From assembly GCA_041485695.1 (NCBI GenBank), contig JBGPJZ010000001.1, forward strand, positions 44,697 to 108,696: a DNA stretch of 64,000 nucleotides, given 5' to 3'. The DNA comes from Minisyncoccia bacterium. Its GTDB lineage: Bacteria > Patescibacteriota > Minisyncoccia > Phycocordibacterales > Phycocordibacteraceae. The translations under genes were made by a program, and so were the position numbers. Below are positions 2,991 through 33,358 of this stretch, piece by piece. The notes under the pieces are model-generated. The model searched no databases, was not told where the DNA came from, and worked only from the letters and a program-made list of their open reading frames with translations. Numbering within the stretch: position 1 is the first letter of the stretch; each line of letters opens with the position of its first letter.

Positions 2991-5900
2991 ATGCAAAAAA
3001 AGCCGCTCCCCCAGAAGACCTTCGGCGCTTACCGGGCGCCGTCCGTGCCCTTGCCCGACCTTGTCGGGCACCAGCGCGAGTCGTTCGACTGGCTCCTTAA
3101 AGACGGGTTCAAGGAGCTTTTCAAGGAGTTCTCGCCTATCTCTGACTACTCGGGCAAAAAATTCGAGCTTAAGTTCGATGACTTTGAGCTTGGCGAGCCT
3201 GCCTATGACGAGGAGTTTGCGCGCGATAACATGCGCACCTACGAAGCGCCTTTGAAGGTGACGGTGAAGCTGCGCAACAAAACGTTCGGCACTGAAAAGT
3301 CGCAAGATATCTTCTTGGCCGACATGCCTATCATGACGCCGCACGGTTCGTTCATCGTCTCGGGCGTTGAGCGCGCCATCGTCCCCCAGCTTGCCCGCTC
3401 GTTTGGAGCCTTTTTTGTCTCCGAGCTTATCCGCGGCAAGCAGTTCTTCGGCGCCAAGATCATCCCGGCTCGCGGCGTATGGATTGAGATTGATTCTGAA
3501 GCTGACGGCGCGATTTTCGTGAAGATCGATCGCAAGCGCAAGTTCCCGGTGACGCACCTCCTGACCGTCTTTGGTGCAGGCTTGGGCGACAAGATCGCAC
3601 AGCTCTTTAAGGGTGATGAAACCGCGCTTGCGGCCCTTAAGGCGACGCTTGTGCACGATACGGCGAAGAGTGTCGAGGAAGCCTACATCGAGATTCACCG
3701 CCGTATGCGCGATGGCGACCTCGCAACCCCGGAGAACGCGAAAAACTTCGTGCAGGCTCTCTTCGGTGCTGACCGCTATGACCTCTCCAAGGTCGGTCGC
3801 CATCGCTTGAACGCACGTTTCGGTCTCCCGACGACCGACAAACAGCTCGAGAAAAGGGCTCTCTCTTTGGCTGATTTCACCCGCATCGTCGCCGAGATTG
3901 CGCGTCTCAATAGCGACCCGAACGCTCGTCCTGATGATATCGACCACCTCGGCTTTCGCCGTGTGCGCTTCGTGGGCGAGCTCCTCCAGTCGCGTATGCG
4001 CGTCGGTATGTCGCGCATGAAGCGCAATATCCAAGACCGCATGTCGACGATTGAAAGCGAGACCACCTTGCCGATGTCCCTCATTAATCCGCGGCCGTTT
4101 TCAGCTGCGGTACGCGAGTTCTTTACGGCGAACCAGCTCTCGCAGTTCATGGACCAGCAAAATATCCTTGCGGAGCTTGAGAACATGCGGACCCTTTCTG
4201 CGCTCGGCCCCGGCGGCCTTACCCGTGAGCGCGCAGGCTTTGAAGTGCGCGACGTGCACTCCAGCCACTACGGACGTCTCTGCCCCATCCATACGCCTGA
4301 AGGGCAGAATATCGGACTCATCTTGCGTTTAGCGACGCACGCGACGACGAACGACTACGGTGTCATCGAGACGCCGTATGTCCGGGTCAAGAACGGTAAA
4401 GTGACCGGTGAAATCGTCACGATAAACGCGCTTGAAGAGGAGCAGGAAACGGTCGCCCACGGGGCGACCAAGGTTGACGCGAGCGGACACATTACCGAGG
4501 AGCTTGTCGAGGCACGCCGCAAGGGCGAACCTGTCATCGTAGAGCGCGATGAGGTGACGCTTATGGATGCCTCGACCTACCAGATGTTTTCCATAGCCAC
4601 GGCGATGATTCCCTTCGTCGACCACGATGATGCGAACCGGGCGCTGATGGGTTCGAACATGCAAAAGCAGGCGACACCGGTGCTTATCCCTGAGGCGCCC
4701 TTGGTCTCGACCGGTATCGAGGCGCATGCCGCTAAGAACACCGGCCGTCTTGTCCTCGCCGGCGAGGCGGGCGAGGTGAACTACGTCGATGCACGCAAGA
4801 TTTCTGTGACCAACAAGGAGGGGAAGAAGAAGGAATATCGTCTCCAGGGCCTCACCCAAACCAACCAAAACTCCGCCTTCTCCCAGCGGCCTTCAGTCTT
4901 CGTCGGGGACAAGGTGAAAAAGGGCGACGTTCTTGCGGACGCCTCGTCCTCGGCACACGGCCAGATGGCACTCGGGCAAAACGCACGCGTCGCCTTCATG
5001 AGCTGGAACGGCGCTAACTACGAAGACGCCATCATCATCTCCGAGCGTCTCGTCGAGGACGCTAAATTTACGACCGTACATATCGAAGACTTCGACTGCG
5101 TGGTGCGCGACACCAAACTCGGCCCCGAGGTCACGACGCACGACATCCCGAATGTCGGCGAACTCCGACTCAAGAATCTTGATGAAGAGGGCGTTATCCG
5201 CATCGGCGCAGAAGTGCGGCCGGGCGATATCCTGGTCGGGAAGGTGACGCCGAAGGGCGAGACCCAGCTCACGCCTGAAGAACGCCTTTTGCGCTCCATC
5301 TTCGGCGATAAGGCAAAGGATGTGAAAGACACCTCGCTCCGCATGGAAGGCGGTAAGCGCGGTCGCGTCATCGGCGTGCGCGTCTTTTCTCGCGAAAAGG
5401 GCGACCAGCTTGAGAGCGGCATCATCAAAAAGATCGTAGTGACGGTCGCACAAGTGCGTAACGTAAGCGTGGGCGACAAGCTCGCAGGGCGCCACGGTAA
5501 CAAAGGCGTCATCTCCCGCGTCCTCCCCGTCGAGGATATGCCCTACGACAAAGACGGCAACCCGGTCGACATCATTTTAACACCGCTTGGCGTACCTTCG
5601 CGTATGAATCTCGGGCAGATTCTCGAGATGCACTTGGGGCTTGCCGCGCATACCTTGAATTACCAAGCAGTGGTGCCGCCCTTTGCGGGCGCCTCTGCTG
5701 ATGAGATTCGAGACGAGCTTCAAGCGGCTGGTTTTGACCGCTCGGGCAAGATGACTCTCTATAACGGTCACACGGGTGAGGCCTTCGCCTCGCCGATAGC
5801 TGTCGGGTACATGTATATCTTAAAGCTTCACCACATGGTCGAAGACAAGATTCACATGCGCTCCATTGGCCCCTACTCCTTGATCACGCAGCAGCCGCTT

Positions 5901-6167
5901 GGCGGCAAGGCGCAAAACGGCGGCCAGCGTTTCGGCGAGATGGAAGTGTGGGCGCTCCTCGGCTACGGCGCGGCATATACCTTGCGCGAGATGCTCACGA
6001 TCAAGTCTGACGACATCACCGGCCGTTCGGCTGCCTTCGACGCAATCGTGAAAGGCGAACCGATCTCCCACACTGGTACCCCGGCCTCGTTCTCGGTCTT
6101 GACGAACCAGATTCGCGGCCTTGCGCTCGATGTTGAGCCGATGGATCTCCCGCCAGAAGCGGAGTGA
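2991..6167 (+). CDS. rpoB: DNA-directed RNA polymerase subunit beta (compact 1058-aa form)
   Basis: Full-length similarity to RpoB, including the C-terminal PYSLITQQPLGGKAQNGGQRFGEMEVWAL region. Confidence 0.97.
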   Translation: MQKKPLPQKTFGAYRAPSVPLPDLVGHQRESFDWLLKDGFKELFKEFSPISDYSGKKFELKFDDFELGEPAYDEEFARDNMRTYEAPLKVTVKLRNKTFGTEKSQDIFLADMPIMTPHGSFIVSGVERAIVPQLARSFGAFFVSELIRGKQFFGAKIIPARGVWIEIDSEADGAIFVKIDRKRKFPVTHLLTVFGAGLGDKIAQLFKGDETALAALKATLVHDTAKSVEEAYIEIHRRMRDGDLATPENAKNFVQALFGADRYDLSKVGRHRLNARFGLPTTDKQLEKRALSLADFTRIVAEIARLNSDPNARPDDIDHLGFRRVRFVGELLQSRMRVGMSRMKRNIQDRMSTIESETTLPMSLINPRPFSAAVREFFTANQLSQFMDQQNILAELENMRTLSALGPGGLTRERAGFEVRDVHSSHYGRLCPIHTPEGQNIGLILRLATHATTNDYGVIETPYVRVKNGKVTGEIVTINALEEEQETVAHGATKVDASGHITEELVEARRKGEPVIVERDEVTLMDASTYQMFSIATAMIPFVDHDDANRALMGSNMQKQATPVLIPEAPLVSTGIEAHAAKNTGRLVLAGEAGEVNYVDARKISVTNKEGKKKEYRLQGLTQTNQNSAFSQRPSVFVGDKVKKGDVLADASSSAHGQMALGQNARVAFMSWNGANYEDAIIISERLVEDAKFTTVHIEDFDCVVRDTKLGPEVTTHDIPNVGELRLKNLDEEGVIRIGAEVRPGDILVGKVTPKGETQLTPEERLLRSIFGDKAKDVKDTSLRMEGGKRGRVIGVRVFSREKGDQLESGIIKKIVVTVAQVRNVSVGDKLAGRHGNKGVISRVLPVEDMPYDKDGNPVDIILTPLGVPSRMNLGQILEMHLGLAAHTLNYQAVVPPFAGASADEIRDELQAAGFDRSGKMTLYNGHTGEAFASPIAVGYMYILKLHHMVEDKIHMRSIGPYSLITQQPLGGKAQNGGQRFGEMEVWALLGYGAAYTLREMLTIKSDDITGRSAAFDAIVKGEPISHTGTPASFSVLTNQIRGLALDVEPMDLPPEAE

Positions 6168-9100: not shown

Positions 9101-9922
9101 ACGCAAGGCCTCCCTCGCGTTGAAGAATTGTTCGAGAAGCGCTCACCGAAGAACCCCGCGGTTATCTCGAAGACCGATGGCATCGTGAGCGAAATCAAGG
9201 AGCTCGGCCGCGAGAAAGTTCTCGTTGTCGTGCCGTCCTCGGGGCAAGGCAAGAAAGACGGCTCGGCGTTCGAGTACCTTGCTCCCTATCCGCGCATGCC
9301 TTTGGTGAAAGCAGGTGACGAGGTAAAAAAAGGGCAGATACTCACCGATGGTTCGTCTGACCTCGATGAGCTCTTCGAGTACGCCGGCCGCGCCATTGTG
9401 CAGGAATACATCATCGCCGAGACCTCGAAGATTTATGAGCTTCAGGGCGCATCCGTGTCTCGTAAGCACCTCGAGGTTATCGTGAAGCAGATGTTCTCAC
9501 GTGTGAAGATCACCGAGGCGGGCGACACCGAGTACTCGGTTGGCGATGTGATTGAAGACTGGGAGTTCGCTCAAGCGGTAATCGATGCCGAGAACGGAAA
9601 TAAGATGCCGCCCTCGGCAGCTGAAATTGTCTTTGGCATCAAGGAGTCCGCACTTTCTCGCCGCTCCTTCCTCTCCGCGGCCTCATTCGAGCAGACGACC
9701 AAAATCCTCATCAACGCAGCCCTCAAAGGGAGCGTGGACCGGCTCCGCGGCCTTAAAGAGAACGTCATCCTCGGGCGCCTCATCCCTGCGGGCACTGGTT
9801 TCAAGGGGAGCGCGAAGCACGCGGCAATCACCAAGCTCCAAGCGGAGCGGCCGGTGCCGGTCGCAAGCGAGCGTATGAGTTCGTATATAGGGAAGCCGTT
9901 TGCGGGCAAGGGCCGCTCTTAA
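6191..9922 (+). CDS. rpoC: DNA-directed RNA polymerase subunit beta'
   Basis: NADFDGDQMAVHVPLS catalytic motif. N-terminal Zn-binding CYCGKYK...CDKCGVE. Confidence 0.97.
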   Translation: MAYSPRKLTGQRDTWNALRLGVASPERILEWSHGEITKPETINYRTQRSEKHGLFDEKIFGPEKDYECYCGKYKGIRYKGIVCDKCGVEITRSIVRRERMGHIELCSPVAHIWFLRSVPSRMALLLGASAADIEKVVYFAGYIVTKVNDDGKKRLLSELESEYKTKYKSQNDDKERDALKERMTVAKAEIEGLAVGRVLDELEYHRFSVKYGGLFEARIGAEAIYDIFRSIDLKELEKMLLAKYQKAGAAEREKLAKRLSLIAGMLSAGVRPDWMFLSRIPVIPPALRPMVALEGGRHATSDVNDLYRRVINRNNRLKKLLDIHAPEVILRNEKRILQEAVDALLDNSIRKGGASAGALTPAQRRPLKSLADYLKGKQGYFRQNLLGKRVDYSGRSVIVVGPDLELDECGLPKHMALELFRPFVIAGLLSRELAFNIRGAGRLIEDGVPEVWEILEEAIKGKYVLLNRAPTLHRQGIQAFRPRLIEGDAIQLHPLVCNAFNADFDGDQMAVHVPLSEEAQWEAANVMSANKNILKPGSGDMIVLTGKPLDIVLGVYWLTREMKKAKGEGEHFTSPNAAILAYEYNGVDLRALINVMPTTDKAKYAHFDGKPFQTTVGRLLFNTVLPSDYPFINDTITKKVLSRIVNDCATRYGLDRVPSIVNKVKRFGFEYATKSGVSWSLDDVSVPKGKGKIIDTAREKVSHIEGDYRNGLLSADEKRRMAIEIWQGAKQEVEKLVAEELDPLGSVADMVTSGARGSMGNLTQMAGMKGLIQNTQGETIEVPIISSMSEGLNPVEYFMSTHGARKGLTDTALGTAKAGYLTRRLFDVAQDSIITEEDCKTKRGVAIRRVSASGIEIDYAETLTGRVLSEDAKDALGETIFKKGHYISPDDGKKIAAGSVESVAVRSAMGCETRYGVCQKCYGMDLTTRRMVDLGEAVGTVAAQAIGEPGTQLTMRTFHAGGVASIGGDITQGLPRVEELFEKRSPKNPAVISKTDGIVSEIKELGREKVLVVVPSSGQGKKDGSAFEYLAPYPRMPLVKAGDEVKKGQILTDGSSDLDELFEYAGRAIVQEYIIAETSKIYELQGASVSRKHLEVIVKQMFSRVKITEAGDTEYSVGDVIEDWEFAQAVIDAENGNKMPPSAAEIVFGIKESALSRRSFLSAASFEQTTKILINAALKGSVDRLRGLKENVILGRLIPAGTGFKGSAKHAAITKLQAERPVPVASERMSSYIGKPFAGKGRS

Positions 9923-11617: not shown

Positions 11618-12853
11618 ATGCCAAAACGAAAAATTAAGAAAATAAAAAAGGCTGCAAAGCACGCGAAGACGAAAGCGAAAATTCGCAAAGCAAGCCCGCG
11701 CCTGCCTGCCGGCAGGCAGGCCACAAGGCATGCGCGGGTGAAACGCATCGTGCGCATCGCTGCGACTGGCGTAAGGGCGAAGGCGGCGGCGCAGATGCAG
11801 CTTTCAGCCGAACAGCTCATCACGAAGGGCAAGGAGCGCGGCTACATCACCTACAACGAGATCCTTAAGTCCTTCCCGCATGTCGAAGACGACGTCGACT
11901 TCCTCGAGGCTCTCTACGAACGCTTCTCGATAGCAGGCATCGATGTCCTTGAAGGGGGCATGCTTGAGGATAATGCCGATCAGTATCTTGCGACCAAGAA
12001 CATCAAAGACCGGCAGTCGACCTCGTACGATTCCATCCAGATTTATTTGCGCGAAATCGGCCAGTACCCTTTGCTTACCGCCGCTGAAGAGCGCCAGTTG
12101 GCTCAACGGATCGAGAGGGGTGATGCTGAAGCGCGCAATATCCTCGCGAGGAGCAACCTCCGCCTCGTCGTTTCAATAGCAAAAAAGTATGTCGGCCGTT
12201 CACCTGACCTGACCTTGCTTGACCTCATTCAAGAGGGGAATTTGGGCCTCTTTCGCGCCGTCGATAAGTTCGACTGGAAAAAAGGCTATAAGTTCTCGAC
12301 CTACGCTACGTGGTGGATTCGCCAGGCGATTACGCGCGCCTTGGCCGACCAGTCGCGCACTATCCGCATCCCCGTGCACATGGTAGAAACAATCGCAAAA
12401 TACAAGCAAGTCTCGAGGCGCCTGGCGCAGGCCTTGGGCCGCGACCCGCAGGCTGAGGAGATTGCGGTCGAGATGGGCGTCGAACCGGAGAAGATCTACC
12501 AGATCGAGAAAATCAACCAAGACACCCTCTCTTTGGAGAACCCTGTCGGCTCTGACGACGATGAAAAGTCCACCCTGGGCGACTTTATTGCTGATGACAA
12601 AATCCCCAGCCCGGTTCAAGAGTCGTCGGAGCGTATCCTTGCCGAGCAGGTTCGGAGTATCTTGAGCGACCTTTCGCCCAAGGAGCGCAAGATTTTGGAA
12701 ATGCGCCACGGGCTCCTCGACGGTATTTACCACACGCTTGAAGAAGTGGGTAAGGAGTTCGGCGTGACTCGCGAGCGCATCCGCCAAATCGAGGCGAAGG
12801 CGCTCGAAAAAATCCGGACCCATGACAGAGCTAGACACCTGAAGAGTTATTAA
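11618..12853 (+). CDS. rpoD: RNA polymerase sigma factor, sigma-70 family, with a Lys-rich N-terminal extension
   Basis: Region 2 [40 protein letters not shown] and region 4 [24 protein letters not shown]. Confidence 0.95.
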
Positions 12854-18464: not shown

Positions 18465-18911
18465 ATGCGGTTTCACTTTTGGCACACGTTCCTCTCGCTC
18501 TTTTTCGCGATACTCGTCGTGATGGGCATTGCATGGTTAAACGCTACCGGGCGGCTCGCGAGCTTCGTACCCTTAACCGACTTCTTCCTCATGGCGCTTG
18601 CCATCTTTCGCCTCATTCACCTCTTTACTTACGACAACATCACCGCGTTTATCCGCGAATGGTTCGTGGGCTACGATGGCCGTACCTTAGCCGGCTCCCT
18701 CGGCACCCTCATTAACTGTCCGTGGTGCACCGGGCTCTGGTTCTCGTTCGTCATCGTCTTCTTGTATTTCGCGACGCCTTTCGCGTGGTATATCATCCTT
18801 ATCCTCGCGCTCTCGGCGCTTGCATCATTTTTTCAACTCCTTTCAAATTTAATCGGCCGGAGTGCTGAACTGAAGAAGCGCGAAGCGCAAAATATAACAT
18901 TGCCTCATTAA
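18465..18911 (+). CDS. DUF1360-family membrane protein
   Basis: CPWCTGLW motif and 4 TM helices. Start taken at the internal ATG after prmC ends. Confidence 0.7.
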   Translation: MRFHFWHTFLSLFFAILVVMGIAWLNATGRLASFVPLTDFFLMALAIFRLIHLFTYDNITAFIREWFVGYDGRTLAGSLGTLINCPWCTGLWFSFVIVFLYFATPFAWYIILILALSALASFFQLLSNLIGRSAELKKREAQNITLPH

Positions 18912-18956
18912 GAAAACGTGCTATAGTGATCGTAGGAATTCAGAACATAAAGGGTA

Positions 18957-19391
18957 ATGGTGGGGCTCATCCAGAAAACGGAGTGTCCCTTGCAAGAGAA
19001 AATCTACACGAGCAGAATGCTCGAATGGTTGGCGGTAGAGATGGAGAAGCGGCCAGGGCAGAGAGCCGCCATCATCAAGGACTTCATCGAAGCGTTCAAG
19101 ATGCCGTTCAGCATCGGCCGCCTTGCGCATCTGCAGCAGACGGCAGGCGGTAAAGAGGCCTTCATCAAGAAATACAAGCCAAAAAATAAGCGGGCTTTGC
19201 CTGAATGGGAGGAGGAAGAAATAATAGTCGAGGCGGTTGAAGAATGGGCGTCCGAAACGAGATTCGAGCGTTATGCGTATGCGGCGATGAAGGTCAACAA
19301 GGCGCGAATCGCGGCCGGCATCAAGCACACGATTGACGCAGAAGAGGTCGAACGCATATTGAAGAGGCCGGTAACGAAGAGCAAGGGATAG
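18957..19391 (+). CDS. Hypothetical acidic protein
   Basis: 144-aa ORF with AAAGGG SD. It has its own terminator. No recognised domain. Confidence 0.5.
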   Translation: MVGLIQKTECPLQEKIYTSRMLEWLAVEMEKRPGQRAAIIKDFIEAFKMPFSIGRLAHLQQTAGGKEAFIKKYKPKNKRALPEWEEEEIIVEAVEEWASETRFERYAYAAMKVNKARIAAGIKHTIDAEEVERILKRPVTKSKG

Positions 19392-19400
19392 TGGTGGGTA

Positions 19401-19441
19401 GGCGGCGCGAGGGTCAAGAAACCCCGCGCCGCCTTTTTCTT
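19401..19441 (+). terminator. Rho-independent terminator
   Basis: ggcggcgcg...cgcgccgcc stem followed by TTTTTCTTTT. Confidence 0.7.
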
Positions 19442-19491
19442 TTACGGGGGCTATGCTTTACTCTCTGCGGAGAAGAAGAAAGGGGGCCACG

Positions 19492-20241
19492 ATGGCCGAC
19501 AAGGATTATGAATCACGAATGGAGGAGACTCCCGTAGAAATAGAGTTCGGCGGGGTGTTTGCCGGGCTCGGAATCGGACGCAGGCTGATTACGCTCATTG
19601 ACCAGGGTTATTCGCGTCATACGATTGCGCGAACGTTGCGGCTAGAGTTCAAGGCCGATGTCAGTTCGAATGCAGTCGCGGGTGCACGCAGGCGGCTACA
19701 GATGCATCGGGCGCGGATGGAAGGCCAACCAGAAAAAGTTGAAGTCAAGCGCGCGTTGCCCTTTGACTGGGGCCAACCACTACGGAATCAGGACTGCATG
19801 GCATCAGAACGCCTGCGTGAACTGGTTGCGAGGCCAGAAAGCTATTCGGCCAAGCAAATCGCGCTTTTTCTCCGGACGGCGGGTTGCGCCGGCCTCACTG
19901 AACAAGAAGTGATGAGGCAGGTCACGCGCACGGGGCTCAGGCTTAAAGGCCGGGGTAAGCACCAAGACTCCAAGCCTCGAGCAGTGGCACCGGCGTTGCC
20001 AGCCGAAACGAAGCCTGCGCCCGCCAAGGCAGAGCCGCATTCGGAGGATGTCATGGCTAAGGAGGGCGAAAAGAGCTGCCAATGGCCCATCGGCGACCCG
20101 GCCGACAAAGACTTTCATTCTTGCCCCTACAAGGCAAAACCGGGGAAGCCGTATTGCGAGAAGCACTGCCGGAAAGCTTATGAGCCCCAGCCTCGGCAAC
20201 GACGCCAACATCAGCAACTTCGTTCGGCGCGGATTCACTGA
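19492..20241 (+). CDS. GcrA-family cell-cycle-regulator-like protein
   Basis: C-terminal CQWPIGDPADKDFHSCPYKAKPGKPYCEKHCRKAY matches the GcrA signature C.WP.GDP...F.FCG...PYC..H...AY. N-terminal HTH SRHTIARTL...SSNAVAGARRRL. AAGGGGG SD before the ATG at 19492. Confidence 0.75.
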   Translation: MADKDYESRMEETPVEIEFGGVFAGLGIGRRLITLIDQGYSRHTIARTLRLEFKADVSSNAVAGARRRLQMHRARMEGQPEKVEVKRALPFDWGQPLRNQDCMASERLRELVARPESYSAKQIALFLRTAGCAGLTEQEVMRQVTRTGLRLKGRGKHQDSKPRAVAPALPAETKPAPAKAEPHSEDVMAKEGEKSCQWPIGDPADKDFHSCPYKAKPGKPYCEKHCRKAYEPQPRQRRQHQQLRSARIH

Positions 20242-20271
20242 GAAGGATTCTCACAAACGTTATTGGTTATT

Positions 20272-20312
20272 GCGGCGCCCTCGGCTTCGTCGGGGCGCCG
20301 CTTTTCTTTTTT
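20272..20312 (+). terminator. Rho-independent terminator of the gcrA-like gene
   Basis: gcggcgccc...gggcgccgc 9-bp stem followed by TTTTCTTTTTT. Confidence 0.75.
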
Positions 20313-20313
20313 G

Positions 20314-20356
20314 TGCCAAAAATGCAAAACGCGCCCCCAGAGGGGGCGCGTTTTGC
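20314..20356 (-). terminator. Rho-independent terminator of the RRM protein gene
   Basis: 15-bp stem gcaaaacgcgccccc/gggggcgcgttttgc with a U-run on the minus strand. Confidence 0.7.
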
Positions 20357-20373
20357 ATGCGAGAGCTTGGGGA

Positions 20374-24384: not shown

Positions 24385-27204
24385 ATGCGGACGTATGACC
24401 ACCAAGAGATAGAGAAGCGCGCCCAAGAGAAATGGGCCTCGCTCGGCTTATATCAAGCAGACCTCGAAGACGATTCGAAAGACCCGTACTACCTCCTCAC
24501 CGAATTCCCCTACCCATCGGGCGACCTCCACATCGGGCACTGGTACGCGTTTGCGGTCACCGATATCTTCGCGCGAGTGAAGCGCATGAAGGGGGAGAAT
24601 GTCTTCTTTCCCATCGGGTTCGATGCGTTCGGCCTCCCGGCCGAGAACGCCGCCATCAAGAACAAGCTCGACCCTAAGGAGTGGACGTACAAGAACATGG
24701 AGCGGATGCGCGAACAGCTTCGCTCGATGGGCGCCTCGTTTGACTGGAGCAAAGAGGTCGTTACCTGCGAGCCTTCGTATTACAAATGGACGCAGTGGCT
24801 CTTCGTGAAGCTCATGGAGCACGGCCTCGCGTATCGCGCCGAGGCCTCAGTGAAGTGGTGCCCCAAAGACCAGACCGTGCTCGCGAACGAGCAGGTCGTC
24901 GACGGCTGCTGCGAACGCTGCGGCACGCCAGTCGAAGAGAAGTGGCTCACGCAATGGTTCCTCAAGATTACCGACTACGCCGAGCGCCTGCTTAAAGACC
25001 TCGAGCCTTTGCCGTGGCGCGAAGAGATCAAGGAGGCCCAGCGCGCGTGGGTAGGCAAGAGCGAGGGCGCGCACATCTCATTTACGATTTCTGGCCGAGA
25101 CGAGAAGGTCAAAGTCTTTACGACGCGGCCTGATACGCTTTTCGGCGCGACCTATTTGGTCCTTGCGCCCGAATACCCGCTCGTTTCACCACTCCTGACA
25201 AGCGTTTCGAATAAGAAAGAAGCCGAGAAGTATATCGATGCGACGAAAAAGAAGACGGAACGAGAGCGTTCCGAGAATAAGGAGAAGACCGGGGTGAAAC
25301 TCGAGGGTGTGAGAGCCATCAATCCGGCCAACCAAGAAGAAATCCCTGTGTACATCGCTGATTACGTCCTCGCCTCATATGGCACAGGCGCGGTGATGGC
25401 GGTGCCCGCTCACGACGAACGCGACTTCGCATTCGCGAAGAAATTTGATTTGCCCATTAGAACGGTCGTAGTCCCCAGACTTGTCGATGACCGGAACCCG
25501 CATATCGAAGGGAAAGAATTGGTGCACCGGAAGATAATCCTCGGCATCGTCAGGAATCCGAAGAACGGTAAATTCCTAGCACTTACATGGAAGAAACAGC
25601 CGTGGACGACGTTCGTCGTAGGGGGTATCGAAGAAGGCGAATCGCCTGAGCAAGCGGCTCGACGCGAAATCGAAGAAGAGACAGGGTATAAGAACCTGAG
25701 ATTCATAAAGGTGCTCGGTGACCCTATTCAGACAGAATTTTATGCGGCGCACAAGGACTTCAATCGTGTGGCGCTCGATTGGCCAGTGCTTTTCGAGCTC
25801 GAGGATGAAGAAAAGAGCGAAGTGAGCGACGAGGAGAAAGACAAGCACGAACCGACGTGGGTTAAGCGCAACGAGCTGACGCGCGAGCGTTTTGAGCATA
25901 TCGAACTCGATATCGTACTCGACCGCATGGACAATGGAGAGAGGGCATATACCGGAGCCGGCGTCCTTATCGCGTCAGGCGGATTCGATGGTAAAGAGAG
26001 CGAAGAGGCGAAATGGGAGATTGTGAAGGCAGTCGGGGGAGAGAGGACGACGAACTACCGCCTGCGCGATTGGCTCGTCTCACGCCAGCGATACTGGGGC
26101 TGCCCGATACCGGTCGTGTATGACCCGGAGGGGGCGCCGCACGCCGTGCCGCCCGAACACCTGCCGTGGCTCCTGCCGACCGATGTCGATTTCGCTCCGC
26201 ACGGGGAGGCGCCGCTCGCATCATCAAAGGAGCTCAAAAAGCGCGTCGAGAAGCTTTTCGGCAAAGGCTGGACGCCCGAATACGACACTCTCGATACGTT
26301 CGTCGACTCCTCATGGTATTTCTTGCGGTATCTCGACCCGAAAGATGAAAACGATTTCAGCGATAAGGGCCTCATGAAAAAGTGGCTCCCCGTCGACCGC
26401 TATTCGGGCGGGAGCGAGCACACGACCATGCACCTCCTCTACGCGCGTTTCTTTCATAAAGCGCTCTCTGACCTTGCACTCGTGCCTACGGCGGAACCGT
26501 TCAACGAACGCTTCAACCGCGGGCTCATCCTCGGGTCAGACGGGCAAAAGATGAGCAAGAGCAAAGGGAATGTCCTCAACCCCGACGAATTCGTGCAAAA
26601 GTACGGCGCCGACGCCGTGCGCCTCTACCTCGCCTTCATCGGGCCCTACAACGAGCCCGGTAGCTACCCCTGGAGTCTCGACGGGGTCGCGGCGATGCGC
26701 AAATTCATCGATCGCGTCGTACGCATGGTCGAGACTGCTACAGGAACTACCAACGTAGATTCAGAGTTCATAGCCGGGAAGGTGAAAATAGATACCGAGC
26801 GTTTTAAATTCAATACTGCAATTGCTGCACTCATGTCTCATCTTAATCTTTGCGAAAAATCTAAACCCGTATCAATAAAAACTGCAAGAGAATTTATTAT
26901 CTTGCTTGCGCCCTTCGCTCCGCATTTGGCTGAGCATCTTTGGGAGCAAATCAACGGGGAGGGGAGTGTTCACCAAGCTTCATGGCCTGTTGTGAACGAA
27001 GAGATACTCGGATTTTTCAACGGGGAAATTGCGGTGCAAGTCAACGGCAAAAAACGCGGCTCGATTACGCTCTCCGCTGATGCGACAGAAGCGGATGCAG
27101 TCGCTCTTGCGCGGAACATTGCTAGCGTACGCACCGCGCTCGGCGGAAAAGAGCCCCAACGAGTCGTCTATCGGCCCGGGAAGATTCTGAACCTCGTCAT
27201 TTGA
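24385..27204 (+). CDS. leuS: Leucine--tRNA ligase carrying a nested NUDIX hydrolase domain
   Basis: HIGH (LHIGHWYAF), CP1 editing motifs (TRPDTLFGATY, GTGAVMAVPAHDERDFAFA), NYRLRDWLVSRQRYWGCPIP and KMSKSKGN. Extra segment aa about 363-520 with Nudix box GGIEEGESPEQAARREIEEETGY. Confidence 0.95.
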   Translation: MRTYDHQEIEKRAQEKWASLGLYQADLEDDSKDPYYLLTEFPYPSGDLHIGHWYAFAVTDIFARVKRMKGENVFFPIGFDAFGLPAENAAIKNKLDPKEWTYKNMERMREQLRSMGASFDWSKEVVTCEPSYYKWTQWLFVKLMEHGLAYRAEASVKWCPKDQTVLANEQVVDGCCERCGTPVEEKWLTQWFLKITDYAERLLKDLEPLPWREEIKEAQRAWVGKSEGAHISFTISGRDEKVKVFTTRPDTLFGATYLVLAPEYPLVSPLLTSVSNKKEAEKYIDATKKKTERERSENKEKTGVKLEGVRAINPANQEEIPVYIADYVLASYGTGAVMAVPAHDERDFAFAKKFDLPIRTVVVPRLVDDRNPHIEGKELVHRKIILGIVRNPKNGKFLALTWKKQPWTTFVVGGIEEGESPEQAARREIEEETGYKNLRFIKVLGDPIQTEFYAAHKDFNRVALDWPVLFELEDEEKSEVSDEEKDKHEPTWVKRNELTRERFEHIELDIVLDRMDNGERAYTGAGVLIASGGFDGKESEEAKWEIVKAVGGERTTNYRLRDWLVSRQRYWGCPIPVVYDPEGAPHAVPPEHLPWLLPTDVDFAPHGEAPLASSKELKKRVEKLFGKGWTPEYDTLDTFVDSSWYFLRYLDPKDENDFSDKGLMKKWLPVDRYSGGSEHTTMHLLYARFFHKALSDLALVPTAEPFNERFNRGLILGSDGQKMSKSKGNVLNPDEFVQKYGADAVRLYLAFIGPYNEPGSYPWSLDGVAAMRKFIDRVVRMVETATGTTNVDSEFIAGKVKIDTERFKFNTAIAALMSHLNLCEKSKPVSIKTAREFIILLAPFAPHLAEHLWEQINGEGSVHQASWPVVNEEILGFFNGEIAVQVNGKKRGSITLSADATEADAVALARNIASVRTALGGKEPQRVVYRPGKILNLVI
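25471..25944 (+). other. Nested NUDIX hydrolase domain inside the LeuS CP1/editing region
   Basis: Perfect GX5EX7REUXEEXGU motif. About 135-aa Nudix-fold-sized insert between ...LPIRTVV and GAGVLIASGGFDG...NYRLRDW. Locally lower GC. Confidence 0.75.
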
Positions 27205-27243: not shown

Positions 27244-28308
27244 ATGGCAAAGAAAGCGAGCCCCCATAAGCACTCGGACGGAGCCGCGCTCTCTTTTGAC
27301 AGCGCGGTACTTGTCAAACGCCTCCTTGCCGAGGTGCCTGAGCGCGCACGCGACGTCCTCGTCCGCCGTTTCGGCCTCGGTGCAACGCCGCTCCGCGAGA
27401 CTTTGGAGGCTATCGGCGACCGCTCCTCGATTACCCGAGAGCGCGTCCGCCAGATCGAGGCGGCAGGCCTTGAGGCAGTGCAAGCGAGCAAAGCCTTCCG
27501 CGATGCCGAGCCCGCCTTCGAGGAGCTCCGCAAAGAGGTCGTCAGGCTCGGCAGTATCGTCCATGAAGACGAGCTCCTTTCGCATTTTGCAAAAGACGAG
27601 AAGAGCCGCAACCGCTTCCGCTTCCTTCTTGTCGTTGGGAGCGCCTTCTACCGCGAACGCGAGACGGATGATTTCTATGCACGCTGGCACGTTGACCACG
27701 AGACCGCGAAGGCGGTTCATGGGGCGCTCTCCCGGCTCTACTCCTCGCTTGATGACAACGACGTCCTCGCTGAAGACGCGCTGATGGACCGCTTCCTTGA
27801 CGAGCTCAAGGACATCAACGAGGCGTACAAGAACGAGGAAATCTTGAAGCGCTGGCTCACCCTCTCGAAGAATATCGGCAAAAATCCGCTTGCGGAGTGG
27901 GGCAGGGTGACTGCGCCCGCCATCCGCACTAAAGGTATCCGTGATTATGCGTATCTCGCCATCAAGCGTCACGGCAAGCCGATGCATTTCTCTGAAGTTG
28001 CTCGCGCCATCGGCACCCTCTTCTCGAAGAAGGCGCATGTTGCGACTACCCATAATGAGCTCATCAAGGATCCGCGCTTTGTCCTCGTTGGCCGCGGCCT
28101 CTACGCGCTCTCCGAATGGGGCTATACGCCGGGCGTCGTGCGCGACGTCATTCGCGAGGTCCTCTCGAAAGAGGGCCCTTTGAAGAAAGACGATGTCATC
28201 AAGCACGTGAAGAAGGCGCGCTTCGTCAAAGACAACACTATTTTGGTAAACTTAAACGACAGCCGCTACTTTAAGCGTCTCAAAGACGGCCGCTACGCAG
28301 CTGCATAA
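27244..28308 (+). CDS. Sigma-70 region-4 HTH + C-terminal HARE-HTH (RpoE delta-subunit-like winged helix) domain protein
   Basis: ERARDVLVRRFGLGATPLRETLEAIGDRSSITRERVRQIEAAGL (sigma region 4). C-terminal PMHFSEVARAI...THNELIKDPRFVLVGRGLYALSEWGY (HARE-HTH pattern). Confidence 0.65.
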   Translation: MAKKASPHKHSDGAALSFDSAVLVKRLLAEVPERARDVLVRRFGLGATPLRETLEAIGDRSSITRERVRQIEAAGLEAVQASKAFRDAEPAFEELRKEVVRLGSIVHEDELLSHFAKDEKSRNRFRFLLVVGSAFYRERETDDFYARWHVDHETAKAVHGALSRLYSSLDDNDVLAEDALMDRFLDELKDINEAYKNEEILKRWLTLSKNIGKNPLAEWGRVTAPAIRTKGIRDYAYLAIKRHGKPMHFSEVARAIGTLFSKKAHVATTHNELIKDPRFVLVGRGLYALSEWGYTPGVVRDVIREVLSKEGPLKKDDVIKHVKKARFVKDNTILVNLNDSRYFKRLKDGRYAAA

Positions 28309-32058: not shown

Positions 32059-32468
32059 CGCTACGGATAGCCCTTGCAGTCTTTGTAGCCGTGGTCATCA
32101 TCATTGCGGCGTTCGCCTTCTTCACCCCTCACGCCAACAGGGGCGGAGAGCAGGCGCCGAGCGCGAGTATCGTCCAGAAACCAGTGCCAGATGTCTCCCT
32201 TTCCGACTCATATAAAAAAGGCATGCATACGATTTCTGGGTCAATCATGGCGCCCACGCCCTGCACGAGCGTCACTGCCGATGCGAGCGTCGCAAGCGGC
32301 ACGCCGGCGGTCATCTCGGTCACCATCTCGATGCCCTCTGATGCAGGTATTTGTTTGCAGCAAGCGACCGTAGTGCCGTTCAAAGTTTCTGCAGCGGCGG
32401 GAGCCGACGCGATCATCGCGGCGTATGTGAATGGGGCACCTGCCTCGACGACTGTAAAAACGTTATGA
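32055..32468 (+). CDS. Small membrane-anchored A/S/T-rich protein (137 aa)
   Basis: N-terminal TM helix. ATGA overlaps with mnmA and the next gene. Confidence 0.5.
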   Translation: MTLRIALAVFVAVVIIIAAFAFFTPHANRGGEQAPSASIVQKPVPDVSLSDSYKKGMHTISGSIMAPTPCTSVTADASVASGTPAVISVTISMPSDAGICLQQATVVPFKVSAAAGADAIIAAYVNGAPASTTVKTL

Positions 32469-33358
32469 CGCCGAATCTTGCACAGGCCGAGAATATCCGA
32501 AGCAGGCCCGCTGGCGTCCCGATAGTCAAAGCCGATGGCACCATTGAGACGTTCGATCCTGAACGCCTGCGCTCATCGCTTATGCGTGCAGGTGCGGGCT
32601 CCCACGCGGCCGAGCGCATCGCAGAGCAGATTACGGAGACAGTGGTACCCGGTGCGGCCTCTCGAGAGATCTATGCGCGGGCGTTCGCACTCCTGCGAAA
32701 AGAGGCGCGGCCAGTTGCAGCTCGGTACGCTCTGCGTCGTGCACTCCTTGAATTCGGCCCCACGGGCCATCCTTTTGAGGACTTCGTGTCGCACCTCTTT
32801 CGCGCGAGCGGATGGCAGGTGAAAACGCGCCAGATGATGCAGGGTAAGTGCGTTACTCACGAAGTTGATTTTTATGCAACGCGCGAGAGCGAGTACCTCG
32901 CCGCCGAGCTCAAATATCACAACGACCCGGCCTACAAGACCGACCTCAAGGTCGCGCTCTATGTAAAAGCGCGCTTCGAAGATATCTGGCAGTGCGACCC
33001 GGCTTTCCAGACGTGCCCCGTAAACCGCGGATTCCTCATTACGAATACCAAATTCACGAGCGAAGCTATCGCGTACGCTTCGTGTGCAGGCATCGAGCTC
33101 CTCGGGTGGAGCTATCCTGCGGGCGCCGGGCTCCTTGAGGAAATGTCTCGTACCCGGGTGTATCCTGTGACGACCCTGACCACGCTCGCGCGCGCGGAAA
33201 AGCGCCTCTTAATCGACCAGGGCGTGGTGGCGGTAGACGAACTCGTGAAGAAGCCGAAGGCTCTTGATGCGCTGCACCTTTCGCCATCGCGGGTAGGGGA
33301 GATACGCGCTGAAGCAGATGGGCTTTTACAACTTGCGCACCCTTTCGACCATGAATGA
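32465..33358 (+). CDS. ATP-cone domain fused to an Mrr-like (PD-(D/E)XK) restriction-endonuclease catalytic domain
   Basis: N-terminal IVKADGTIETFDPERLRSSLMRAG (NrdR-like ATP-cone). C-terminal FEDFVSHLFRASGWQV...CVTHEVDFYATRESEYLAAELKYH (Mrr_cat-like D...ExK). Confidence 0.65.
   Translation: MTPNLAQAENIRSRPAGVPIVKADGTIETFDPERLRSSLMRAGAGSHAAERIAEQITETVVPGAASREIYARAFALLRKEARPVAARYALRRALLEFGPTGHPFEDFVSHLFRASGWQVKTRQMMQGKCVTHEVDFYATRESEYLAAELKYHNDPAYKTDLKVALYVKARFEDIWQCDPAFQTCPVNRGFLITNTKFTSEAIAYASCAGIELLGWSYPAGAGLLEEMSRTRVYPVTTLTTLARAEKRLLIDQGVVAVDELVKKPKALDALHLSPSRVGEIRAEADGLLQLAHPFDHE

Follow-up and report, generated by a model that had tools for sequence, protein, structure and literature searches.

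The literature describes GcrA as a regulator of Alphaproteobacteria (and of phages). The window analysed here, a stretch of 64,000 nucleotides (64 kb) of contig JBGPJZ010000001.1 from a Minisyncoccia bacterium, encodes on its plus strand (nucleotides 19492–20241) a 249-amino-acid (aa) protein of the GcrA family. The gene is preceded by a 144-aa orphan gene, and the pair, together with its expression signals, is referred to below as the cassette. The same pair is present in one related genome, GCA_030651385.1, whose contig L002 is used for comparison. The features of the locus are the following, in window positions:

18900..18927 (+): putative promoter of the orphan gene, TTGCCT-16-TATAGT and a TG ahead of the -10 element, found by a consensus scan
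18957..19391 (+): orphan gene, 144 aa if it starts at the ATG at 18957 and 124 aa if it starts at M21 (19017)
19401..19443 (+): intrinsic terminator downstream of the orphan gene, GGCGGCGCG...CGCGCCGCC followed by a T-run (-32.6 kcal/mol, z -3.5)
19454..19462 (+): putative extended -10 element of the GcrA-like gene, TGCTTTACT, identical in L002
19480..19486 (+): Shine-Dalgarno sequence AAGGGGG, 5 nt before the ATG at 19492, which aligns with AAGGAGG of L002
19492..20241 (+): GcrA-family gene, 249 aa, assigned by PF07750, PDB matches to the sigma-interacting domain (SID), an AlphaFold2 (AF2) model and Foldseek
20272..20312 (+): intrinsic terminator of the GcrA-like gene, a hairpin and TTTTCTTTTTT
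20322..20358 (-): terminator of the convergent RRM gene, a 17-bp hairpin and then a T-run in the minus-strand fold

The open reading frame (ORF) that includes the GcrA-like gene extends from its first ATG over 19453..20241 on the plus strand (262 aa). The ATG at 19492 is the likely start, since this codon and its Shine-Dalgarno sequence align with those of the orthologue in L002, in which a stop codon closes the frame upstream. The promoter-like element upstream of the orphan gene (TGCTATAGT/TGCTATAAT) is also kept in L002, and we infer that the segment 18900..18927 acts as the promoter of the orphan gene; TGCTTTACT at 19454..19462 is a possible promoter element of the GcrA-like gene. The hairpin and T-run at 19401–19443 are near-identical in L002, and for the hairpin at 20322–20358 the whole 131-nt region has a fold z of -5.9.

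The cassette is flanked on both sides by housekeeping genes, including rpoB, rpoC, dnaG, rpoD, hisS and genes for a PrmC-like methyltransferase, DUF1360, an RRM protein and YchF. The core-gene run of the window comprises rpoB, rpoC, dnaG, rpoD, hisS, leuS, alaS, tyrS, ribosomal proteins, rpoA and grpE-dnaK-dnaJ, and the GC content is flat at ~56% over the window, with no dip at the cassette. The product of rpoB (2991–6167) shares 83–92% identity with a large set of proteins from the Candidate Phyla Radiation (CPR). The best named matches (85–89%) are from Candidatus Kaiserbacteria (89%), Paceibacterota and Patescibacteria, and there are others from Minisyncoccia and the Parcubacteria group. 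Because of the 89% identity to the Kaiserbacteria protein, the CPR, non-alphaproteobacterial context is real. The initial annotation had placed in such a context a GcrA homologue that ends with CQWPIGDPADKDFHSCPYKAKPGKPYCEKHCRKAY, has an N-terminal helix-turn-helix (HTH) and its own Shine-Dalgarno sequence and terminator, and follows a 144-aa gene between housekeeping genes, with a strong terminator after each of the two. This observation is confirmed in every detail: both terminators are real G+C hairpins followed by T-runs, the N-terminal HTH proves to be two modules, and the 144-aa gene is present, its start being possibly M21.

The family assignment comes from several searches. With the Pfam hidden Markov model (HMM) PF07750 (GcrA), the search by which the initial annotation had proposed to check the homology, the 249-aa protein scores 61.5 bits (E value 1.6e-16; gathering cutoff 26.9). 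In a split test, only residues 92–249 give a significant match, to the SID half (52.6 bits); the score of residues 1–91 is 14.4 bits (E value 0.05), on the half that represents the DNA-binding domain (DBD). Residues ~167–239 align to the SID of Caulobacter GcrA (5yix_B, E value 5e-11; 7ye1_G, E value 3e-10). The score with the NCBIfam equivalog NF050816 (sig70cofacGcrA) is 54 bits against a cutoff of 280, and the match is confined to residues 160–241. Judged by these sequence comparisons, the GcrA-like protein is a family member and not a functional orthologue of the Caulobacter cell-cycle regulator GcrA. HMMER, run exhaustively against 1.84 billion cluster representatives, returned 3490 family members at an E value of at most 1e-3; the sole close homologue is P0002 (186 aa; E value 1e-27), and all remaining members have E values of 2e-14 or above. 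A word-indexed protein search with the GcrA-like protein gave no match besides itself, a scan of genome contigs gave alphaproteobacterial GcrA loci only, and scans of metagenome contigs with the orphan-gene alignment and the GcrA alignment gave no relative in either case. The AF2 model, computed from 109 family sequences, has a mean predicted local distance difference test score (pLDDT) of 77.6, and its three best Foldseek matches in the PDB are 7ye1_G, 7ye2_G and 5yix_B. The homology itself is not new, because relatives already carry a GcrA-family label from automated pipelines. No paper in the collection searched names GcrA together with the Candidate Phyla Radiation or Patescibacteria.

The protein is divided into five parts, all encoded on the plus strand:

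19573..19719 (+): HTH1, residues 28–76, an extra N-terminal GcrA-DBD-like module with the recognition helix SSNAVAGARRRL
19768..19947 (+): HTH2, residues 93–152, the positional equivalent of the canonical GcrA DBD
19948..20046 (+): linker rich in Pro, Ala and Lys, residues 153–185, pLDDT 61–64, without secondary structure
20047..20187 (+): SID, residues 186–232, with the CCCH zinc motif C196-X14-C211-X10-C222-X2-H225
20188..20238 (+): basic C-terminal tail PRQRRQHQQLRSARIH, which corresponds to the basic patch of GcrA

In Caulobacter the zinc motif of the SID is C-X14-C-X9-C-X2-H (C118, C133, C143, and H146; PMC5887438), from which the motif found here differs by one extra residue in the second spacer (X10 instead of X9). 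It is the only SID-type CCCH motif in a real ORF of the window, and C196, C211, Y221, and C222 are invariant in 109 homologues. The SID is modelled with a pLDDT of ~95, and Foldseek superposes it on 5yix_B with a root-mean-square deviation of 1.4 Å over 39 columns and a template-modelling score (target) of 0.71; the model was built from a GcrA alignment, and the superposition is therefore a consistency check and not independent proof. Mutation of eight non-ligand residues of the Caulobacter SID (K119, W120, D124, G129, F130, F132, Y142, and Y151) abolishes the binding to sigma70. Five of the eight are kept here, namely the equivalents of W120, D124, F130, Y142, and Y151. The basic patch that follows the SID is also kept (YEPQPRQRRQHQQLRSARIH, compared with YQPQQTKKKS in Caulobacter) in the pattern PRQRRQ...R..R, and is modelled as a helix. 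In the cryo-EM structure, the basic patch of Caulobacter GcrA touches the non-template DNA (PMC9976885).

The expected partner of the SID is the housekeeping sigma factor, sigma-A, which is encoded in the same window (11618–12853). Its region 1.2 (residues 138–170) runs directly into region 2 (176–248) without a non-conserved region (NCR), and the protein can be aligned over its full length to SigA of Bacillus, Staphylococcus, and Clostridioides, which has no NCR either. The segment concerned is:

12095..12118 (+): codons Q160–R167 (QLAQRIER) of sigma-A region 1.2, the predicted SID docking face

The Caulobacter region 1.2 sequence was checked against 7ye1_F and aligns without gaps to that of the window. 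The Caulobacter sigma70 contacts L128, L129, and R140 are kept, and the equivalents of G133, A136, K139, and A143 are E157, Q160, Q163, and R167. The substitutions G133E, A136E, K139A, and A143R in Caulobacter sigma70 are reported to diminish SID binding. In an alignment of the window sigma-A with those of six relatives, there are exactly three positions at which five relatives are invariant and the two genomes with the cassette share another residue, E160Q, K163Q, and K167R. They sit at the positions of Caulobacter A136, K139, and A143, which are SID contacts, all on one helix face. The relative on contig L022, which has a canonical DBD gene at the chromosomal position of the cassette, keeps E, K, and K. 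For three substitutions falling among ~17 contact positions of 348, a rough estimate that assumes independent sites gives a probability near 1e-4.

The two HTH modules are recognizable to different degrees. With a custom HMM, i.e., a profile of 53 canonical GcrA DBDs, HTH1 scores 17.4 bits over model positions 10–48, nearly the whole domain, and HTH2 scores 11.9 bits over helices 1–2 only. HTH1 shares 36% identity (BLASTP; E value 4e-6) with the canonical DBD of L022. In the AF2 model, HTH1 forms three helices at residues 28–76 (pLDDT 62–83) and HTH2 forms three helices at 104–147 (pLDDT ~90). The helix SSNAVAGARRR of HTH1 has the equivalents of N34, G38, and R42 only; R33 and I37, which in Caulobacter GcrA form the sides and floor of the first methyl pocket, are lost. 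The recognition helix of HTH2 is degenerate (TEQEVMRQVTRTGL versus TRNAVIGKVHRLGL, i.e., TEQEVMRQVTR versus TRNAVIGKVHR), and of the residues T32, R33, N34, I37, G38, K39, H41, and R42 only T32 and R42 remain. In a MAFFT alignment with 108 homologues, W93, I123, and R146 of HTH2 occupy near-invariant columns of the DBD. A BLASTP comparison of residues 1–91 with residues 92–172, which would reveal an internal duplication, gave no alignment, and the kinship of both modules to the GcrA DBD is seen only by profile.

The same HTH-HTH-SID layout is found elsewhere. P0115, a metagenomic protein of 246 aa named GcrA cell cycle regulator at JGI, is collinear with the GcrA-like protein over residues 41–231 (29% identity; E value 1e-18), and a protein of IMG/VR UViG_3300020202_000067 has this layout as well. 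In both of them it is the SID-proximal HTH that is canonical (TRNAVIG/TRNAVVS) and the distal one that is degenerate, the reverse of the order described here. The IMG/VR protein, 231 aa in length, is encoded at L019:6840-7535 on a viral contig of 81 kb; its SID has CQWPIGDP and is extended by a long insertion between zinc ligands 2 and 3, and the ORF adjoining its gene resembles a LuxR-type HTH protein by sequence alone.

These features have to be set against Caulobacter crescentus GcrA (5YIX, 5Z7I, and 7YE1/7YE2), with which the GcrA-like protein shares the CCCH zinc SID of the same predicted fold, the basic patch, the flexible linker, the three-helix N-terminal HTH of GcrA type and a monomer-style architecture. 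The two differ in the number of HTHs (two here, one in Caulobacter), in the motif TRNAVIGKxHR, which is not kept here, and in the linker from the proximal HTH, ~33 residues here and ~60 in Caulobacter. They also differ in their hosts: here a CPR bacterium, with a sigma-A that has no NCR and is changed at the equivalents of G133, A136, K139, and A143. Membership in PF07750, the equivalents of N34, G38, and R42 in HTH1, and the near-canonical DBD of L022 would all suit a functional orthologue of Caulobacter GcrA, i.e., a reader of N6-methyladenine (m6A) in GANTC that acts with a CcrM-type methyltransferase in cell-cycle transcription. We consider this very unlikely. The NF050816 score is low, neither module keeps R33 or I37, the SID-proximal one has also lost N34 and G38, and a reading of methylated GANTC is unlikely because the m6A pockets (R33, N34, I37, and G38) are incomplete in both. 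No DNA methyltransferase domain was found in any ORF of the 64-kb window.

The frequency of the methylation site bears on the same question. Palindromes were counted over the whole window and judged against a second-order Markov model, in which GANTC is moderately under-represented (191 observed, 256 expected; z -4.6), a point in favour of a functional orthologue. However, GATC (116 observed, 315 expected; z -13) and CTNAG (69 observed, 188 expected; z -8.3) are avoided more strongly, and thus the depletion of GANTC is not specific; the avoidance of short palindromes suggests restriction-modification pressure. Nine GANTC sites lie within 1 kb at 19261–20246, a stretch that takes in the last part of the orphan gene and the GcrA-like gene. 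This is ~3x the window average, and the cluster is not significant once 64 such windows are allowed for.

The close homologue P0002 (MDO8624130.1; annotated at NCBI as GcrA family cell cycle regulator) is the orthologue in GCA_030651385.1, where the gene order DUF1360, orphan gene, GcrA-like gene and RRM gene is the same. The cassette, the promoter-like element, the Shine-Dalgarno sequence and the terminators recur there at the same position. P0002 resembles the GcrA-like protein in its SID signature GEKSCQWPIGDP...KPYC, in its degenerate HTH2, in the SARI of the basic tail, in the conserved intergenic DNA and in the QQR variant of sigma-A. It differs in being 186 aa long, in having no HTH1, in being only 43% identical, in keeping the equivalent of G129 and in having an aromatic residue at the F132 position. 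The identities of the other proteins between the window and L002 are 73% for the orphan protein, 66% for HisS and 93% for the RRM protein. At the DNA level, the intergenic region between the orphan and GcrA-like genes is 89% identical; in the profile along the cassette the values are 82–87% for this region, terminator included, 77–80% for the SID core, 53–58% for HTH2 and 25–42% for the linker. By this profile, the cassette forms a unit in which the regulatory DNA and the partner are conserved and the GcrA-like gene evolves fast. A side observation in the same genome is a pair of genes resembling a ParE toxin between rpoC and dnaG (L026:19582-20057), absent from the window.

We propose that the protein, a divergent member of the GcrA family, probably serves as a sigma-A-tethered, promoter-selective transcription factor in a Kaiserbacteria-like CPR bacterium. 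Like Caulobacter GcrA in outline, it would be a monomer pre-bound to the housekeeping sigma-A, its SID docking on the helical face of sigma-A region 1.2/2.1 through a re-fitted interface and its basic tail lying near the non-template strand of the discriminator. The flexible linker (~33 residues from HTH2, ~110 from HTH1) would let one or both HTHs reach promoter-proximal DNA, and the holoenzyme with the GcrA-like factor would be biased to a subset of promoters. RbpA, Crl, and GrgA, small proteins that are pre-bound to domain 2 of the principal or stress sigma and raise open-complex formation (PMC5887438), are functional analogues only, with no relationship to the GcrA-like protein in sequence or fold.

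Several points weigh against this proposal. Three of the eight sigma-binding residues of the SID are changed (K119Q, G129D, and F132S), and G129D is disruptive by itself in the Caulobacter SID. The sigma-A residues equivalent to G133, A136, and A143 are bulky or charged, and the NCR is absent. Because contact residues are changed on both the SID and sigma, and because of the missing NCR, the canonical interface cannot be assumed, and specific DNA binding is uncertain because the SID-proximal HTH is without recognition residues. The co-variation of sigma-A is suggestive and not proof, since it represents one evolutionary event in one clade, and the three substituted sites lie close together. 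Moreover, the fast evolution of the GcrA-like gene (43% identity, compared with 66–93% in its neighbours) could also mean relaxed constraint. The three changed contacts of sigma and the three changed contacts of the SID are nevertheless consistent with a re-fitted interface.

The conservation profile also bears on a second explanation, according to which the protein binds sigma-A and no longer reads DNA, acting in general initiation or sigma remodelling through the SID and the tail, with HTHs that are decaying or used for protein contacts. We regard this as unlikely and yet as a serious alternative, because the SID alone is well conserved (77–80% DNA identity for its core, compared with 25–58% for linker and HTH2) and because the orthologue has shed one HTH. 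SID-only members of the family exist, e.g., the 58-aa P0104, and Caulobacter GcrA truncated in its DBD retains residual activity via the basic patch (PMC9976885). On the other hand, HTH2 is predicted to be well folded (pLDDT ~90) with the scaffold residues W93, I123, R146, and G148 kept, HTH1 retains part of its recognition helix, and ~150 residues without function are unlikely to be maintained in a reduced genome.

An extended form of the proposed sigma-A-tethered factor is more tentative. In this form a pre-recruited activator of GcrA type would have been re-fitted to a Gram-positive-type sigma-A that has no NCR, the SID and sigma-A region 1.2 would have co-evolved (K119Q/G129D/F132S with E160Q/K163Q/K167R), the orphan protein would be an obligatory partner not known before, and the two HTHs would read a bipartite, methylation-independent site; we hold it possible, and doubtful as a whole. 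If true, the CPR would have its first described lineage-specific sigma cofactor, and the case would be a natural experiment in the evolution of a sigma-cofactor interface. Since sigma is changed exactly at residues that GcrA touches in Caulobacter, the pairing is directly testable, and the two related genomes provide a compact case, with a fast-evolving cofactor, one DNA-binding module lost and a sigma changed only on the predicted contact face.

The chromosomal position of the cassette was examined with HisS as the anchor, by comparison of the slot between the DUF1360/PrmC-like methyltransferase genes and the RRM gene (window equivalent 18912–20373) in eight related contigs. The HisS identity and the content of the slot are as follows:

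L002/L026 (GCA_030651385.1): HisS 66%, same cassette, with a 123-aa orphan gene and the 186-aa GcrA-like P0002
L027: HisS 75%, slot empty
115-kb JGI contig (JGI 3300071358): HisS 72%, slot empty
L020: HisS 73%, slot empty
L023: HisS 72%, slot with a 489-aa ParB_N-like gene
L024: HisS 68%, slot with a two-component system
L022 (ENA ERZ27254752 k141_1361203): HisS 76%, GcrA-DBD gene directly after DUF1360, at L022:1-234 (minus strand)

The cassette is thus absent from five relatives, and the slot is a variable chromosomal position, a hot spot of gene turnover. The L022 gene starts with MEWTDERVQELKDLWNEGLSASKIARMLRGVTRNAVIGKVHRLGL and has the helix TRNAVIGKVHRLGL; residues 1–65 of 7ye1_G are matched with an E value of 1e-19, no orphan gene lies between DUF1360 and the GcrA-DBD gene, and the contig ends after 78 codons. 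As far as we can tell, the finding of three different GcrA forms in one chromosomal slot is new. The canonical DBD in the L022 slot suggests that different forms of GcrA are sampled among CPR lineages, and it could be a sign, in some of these, of adenine-methylation signalling that has gone unrecognised.

Such a variable slot raises the possibility of phage descent, and the initial annotation had offered two readings, a phage-derived regulator or an RNA polymerase-associated factor of the lineage. The second is favoured by the intact SID and the co-substituted sigma-A surface. In its full form, the first would make the gene a host-takeover gene of a phage or mobile element (a moron or a remnant) that came to rest at a hot spot of the chromosome without an integrated role in the host. 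Phages are known to carry GcrA-like genes (PMC3556154, PMC13459779), the tandem-HTH form occurs on an IMG/VR contig, the slot cargo varies among relatives, and the fraction of G+C at third codon positions (GC3) of the GcrA-like gene is 0.62, compared with 0.69–0.74 for rpoB, rpoD, and hisS. Even so, we judge this origin quite unlikely. No integrase, capsid, tail, or other phage genes surround the cassette, and a tblastn search of 50,697 phage records gave only two matches of 37 residues each. The one PHROG match, phrog_12262, is weak (E value 5.3e-7) and limited to residues 169–236, so that there is no full-length match to the phage GcrA-like proteins, and the identity to GcrA-like proteins from IMG/VR is 27–30%. 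The context in the window is housekeeping and not viral, the cassette and its regulatory DNA are conserved, position included, in a genome with a HisS identity of 66%, and the co-substitutions in sigma-A argue for integration with the host machinery. The variable slot and the slightly lower GC3 leave room for an old horizontal acquisition.

The orphan protein shares 73% identity with its positional counterpart in L002, the product of a 123-aa gene, and is thus more conserved than HisS (66%). The gene has no match in Pfam, NCBIfam, PHROGs, PADLOC, the PDB or the phage tblastn search. A single-sequence model of low confidence (pLDDT 47) is all-helical. As a candidate relative of the GcrA DBD the orphan protein was rejected, with an HMM score below 0 and an hhalign probability of 0.3%. 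The 20 codons before M21 (60 nt, 18957–19016) are ~85% identical in L002 at 9460–9527, in frame (GLIQ[KR]TECPLQ), and L002 has no in-frame ATG, GTG, or TTG ahead of the equivalent of M21. Either the start of the orphan gene differs between the genomes, or an indel in a G-run of the metagenome-assembled genome hides the start in L002. A small leader hairpin is predicted and conserved, with no covariation from the two sequences, and Rfam searches around the cassette gave sub-threshold, terminator-like matches only.

CPR bacteria have very few recognisable transcription regulators, and a sigma-tethered factor would therefore be notable in their repertoire. As far as we can tell, what is new here is the presence of the family in CPR genomes of the Kaiserbacteria type, the inverted order of the tandem HTHs (a degenerate proximal module and a distal one closer to the canonical form), the NCR-less partner sigma with lineage-specific substitutions on its contact face, and the conserved orphan partner.

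Three further genes of the window deserve mention. The leucyl-tRNA synthetase (939 aa; 24385–27204, plus strand) has a NUDIX hydrolase domain (residues 384–504; E value 9e-15) right after the editing domain. A 354-aa protein encoded at 27244–28308 (plus strand) has a sigma-70 region 4 at its N-terminus (residues 27–80) and a weak HARE-HTH match near its C-terminus; other sigma regions were not detected in it. The ORF at 32351–33358 (plus strand) joins an ATP-cone domain with a Mrr_cat (restriction-endonuclease-like) domain.

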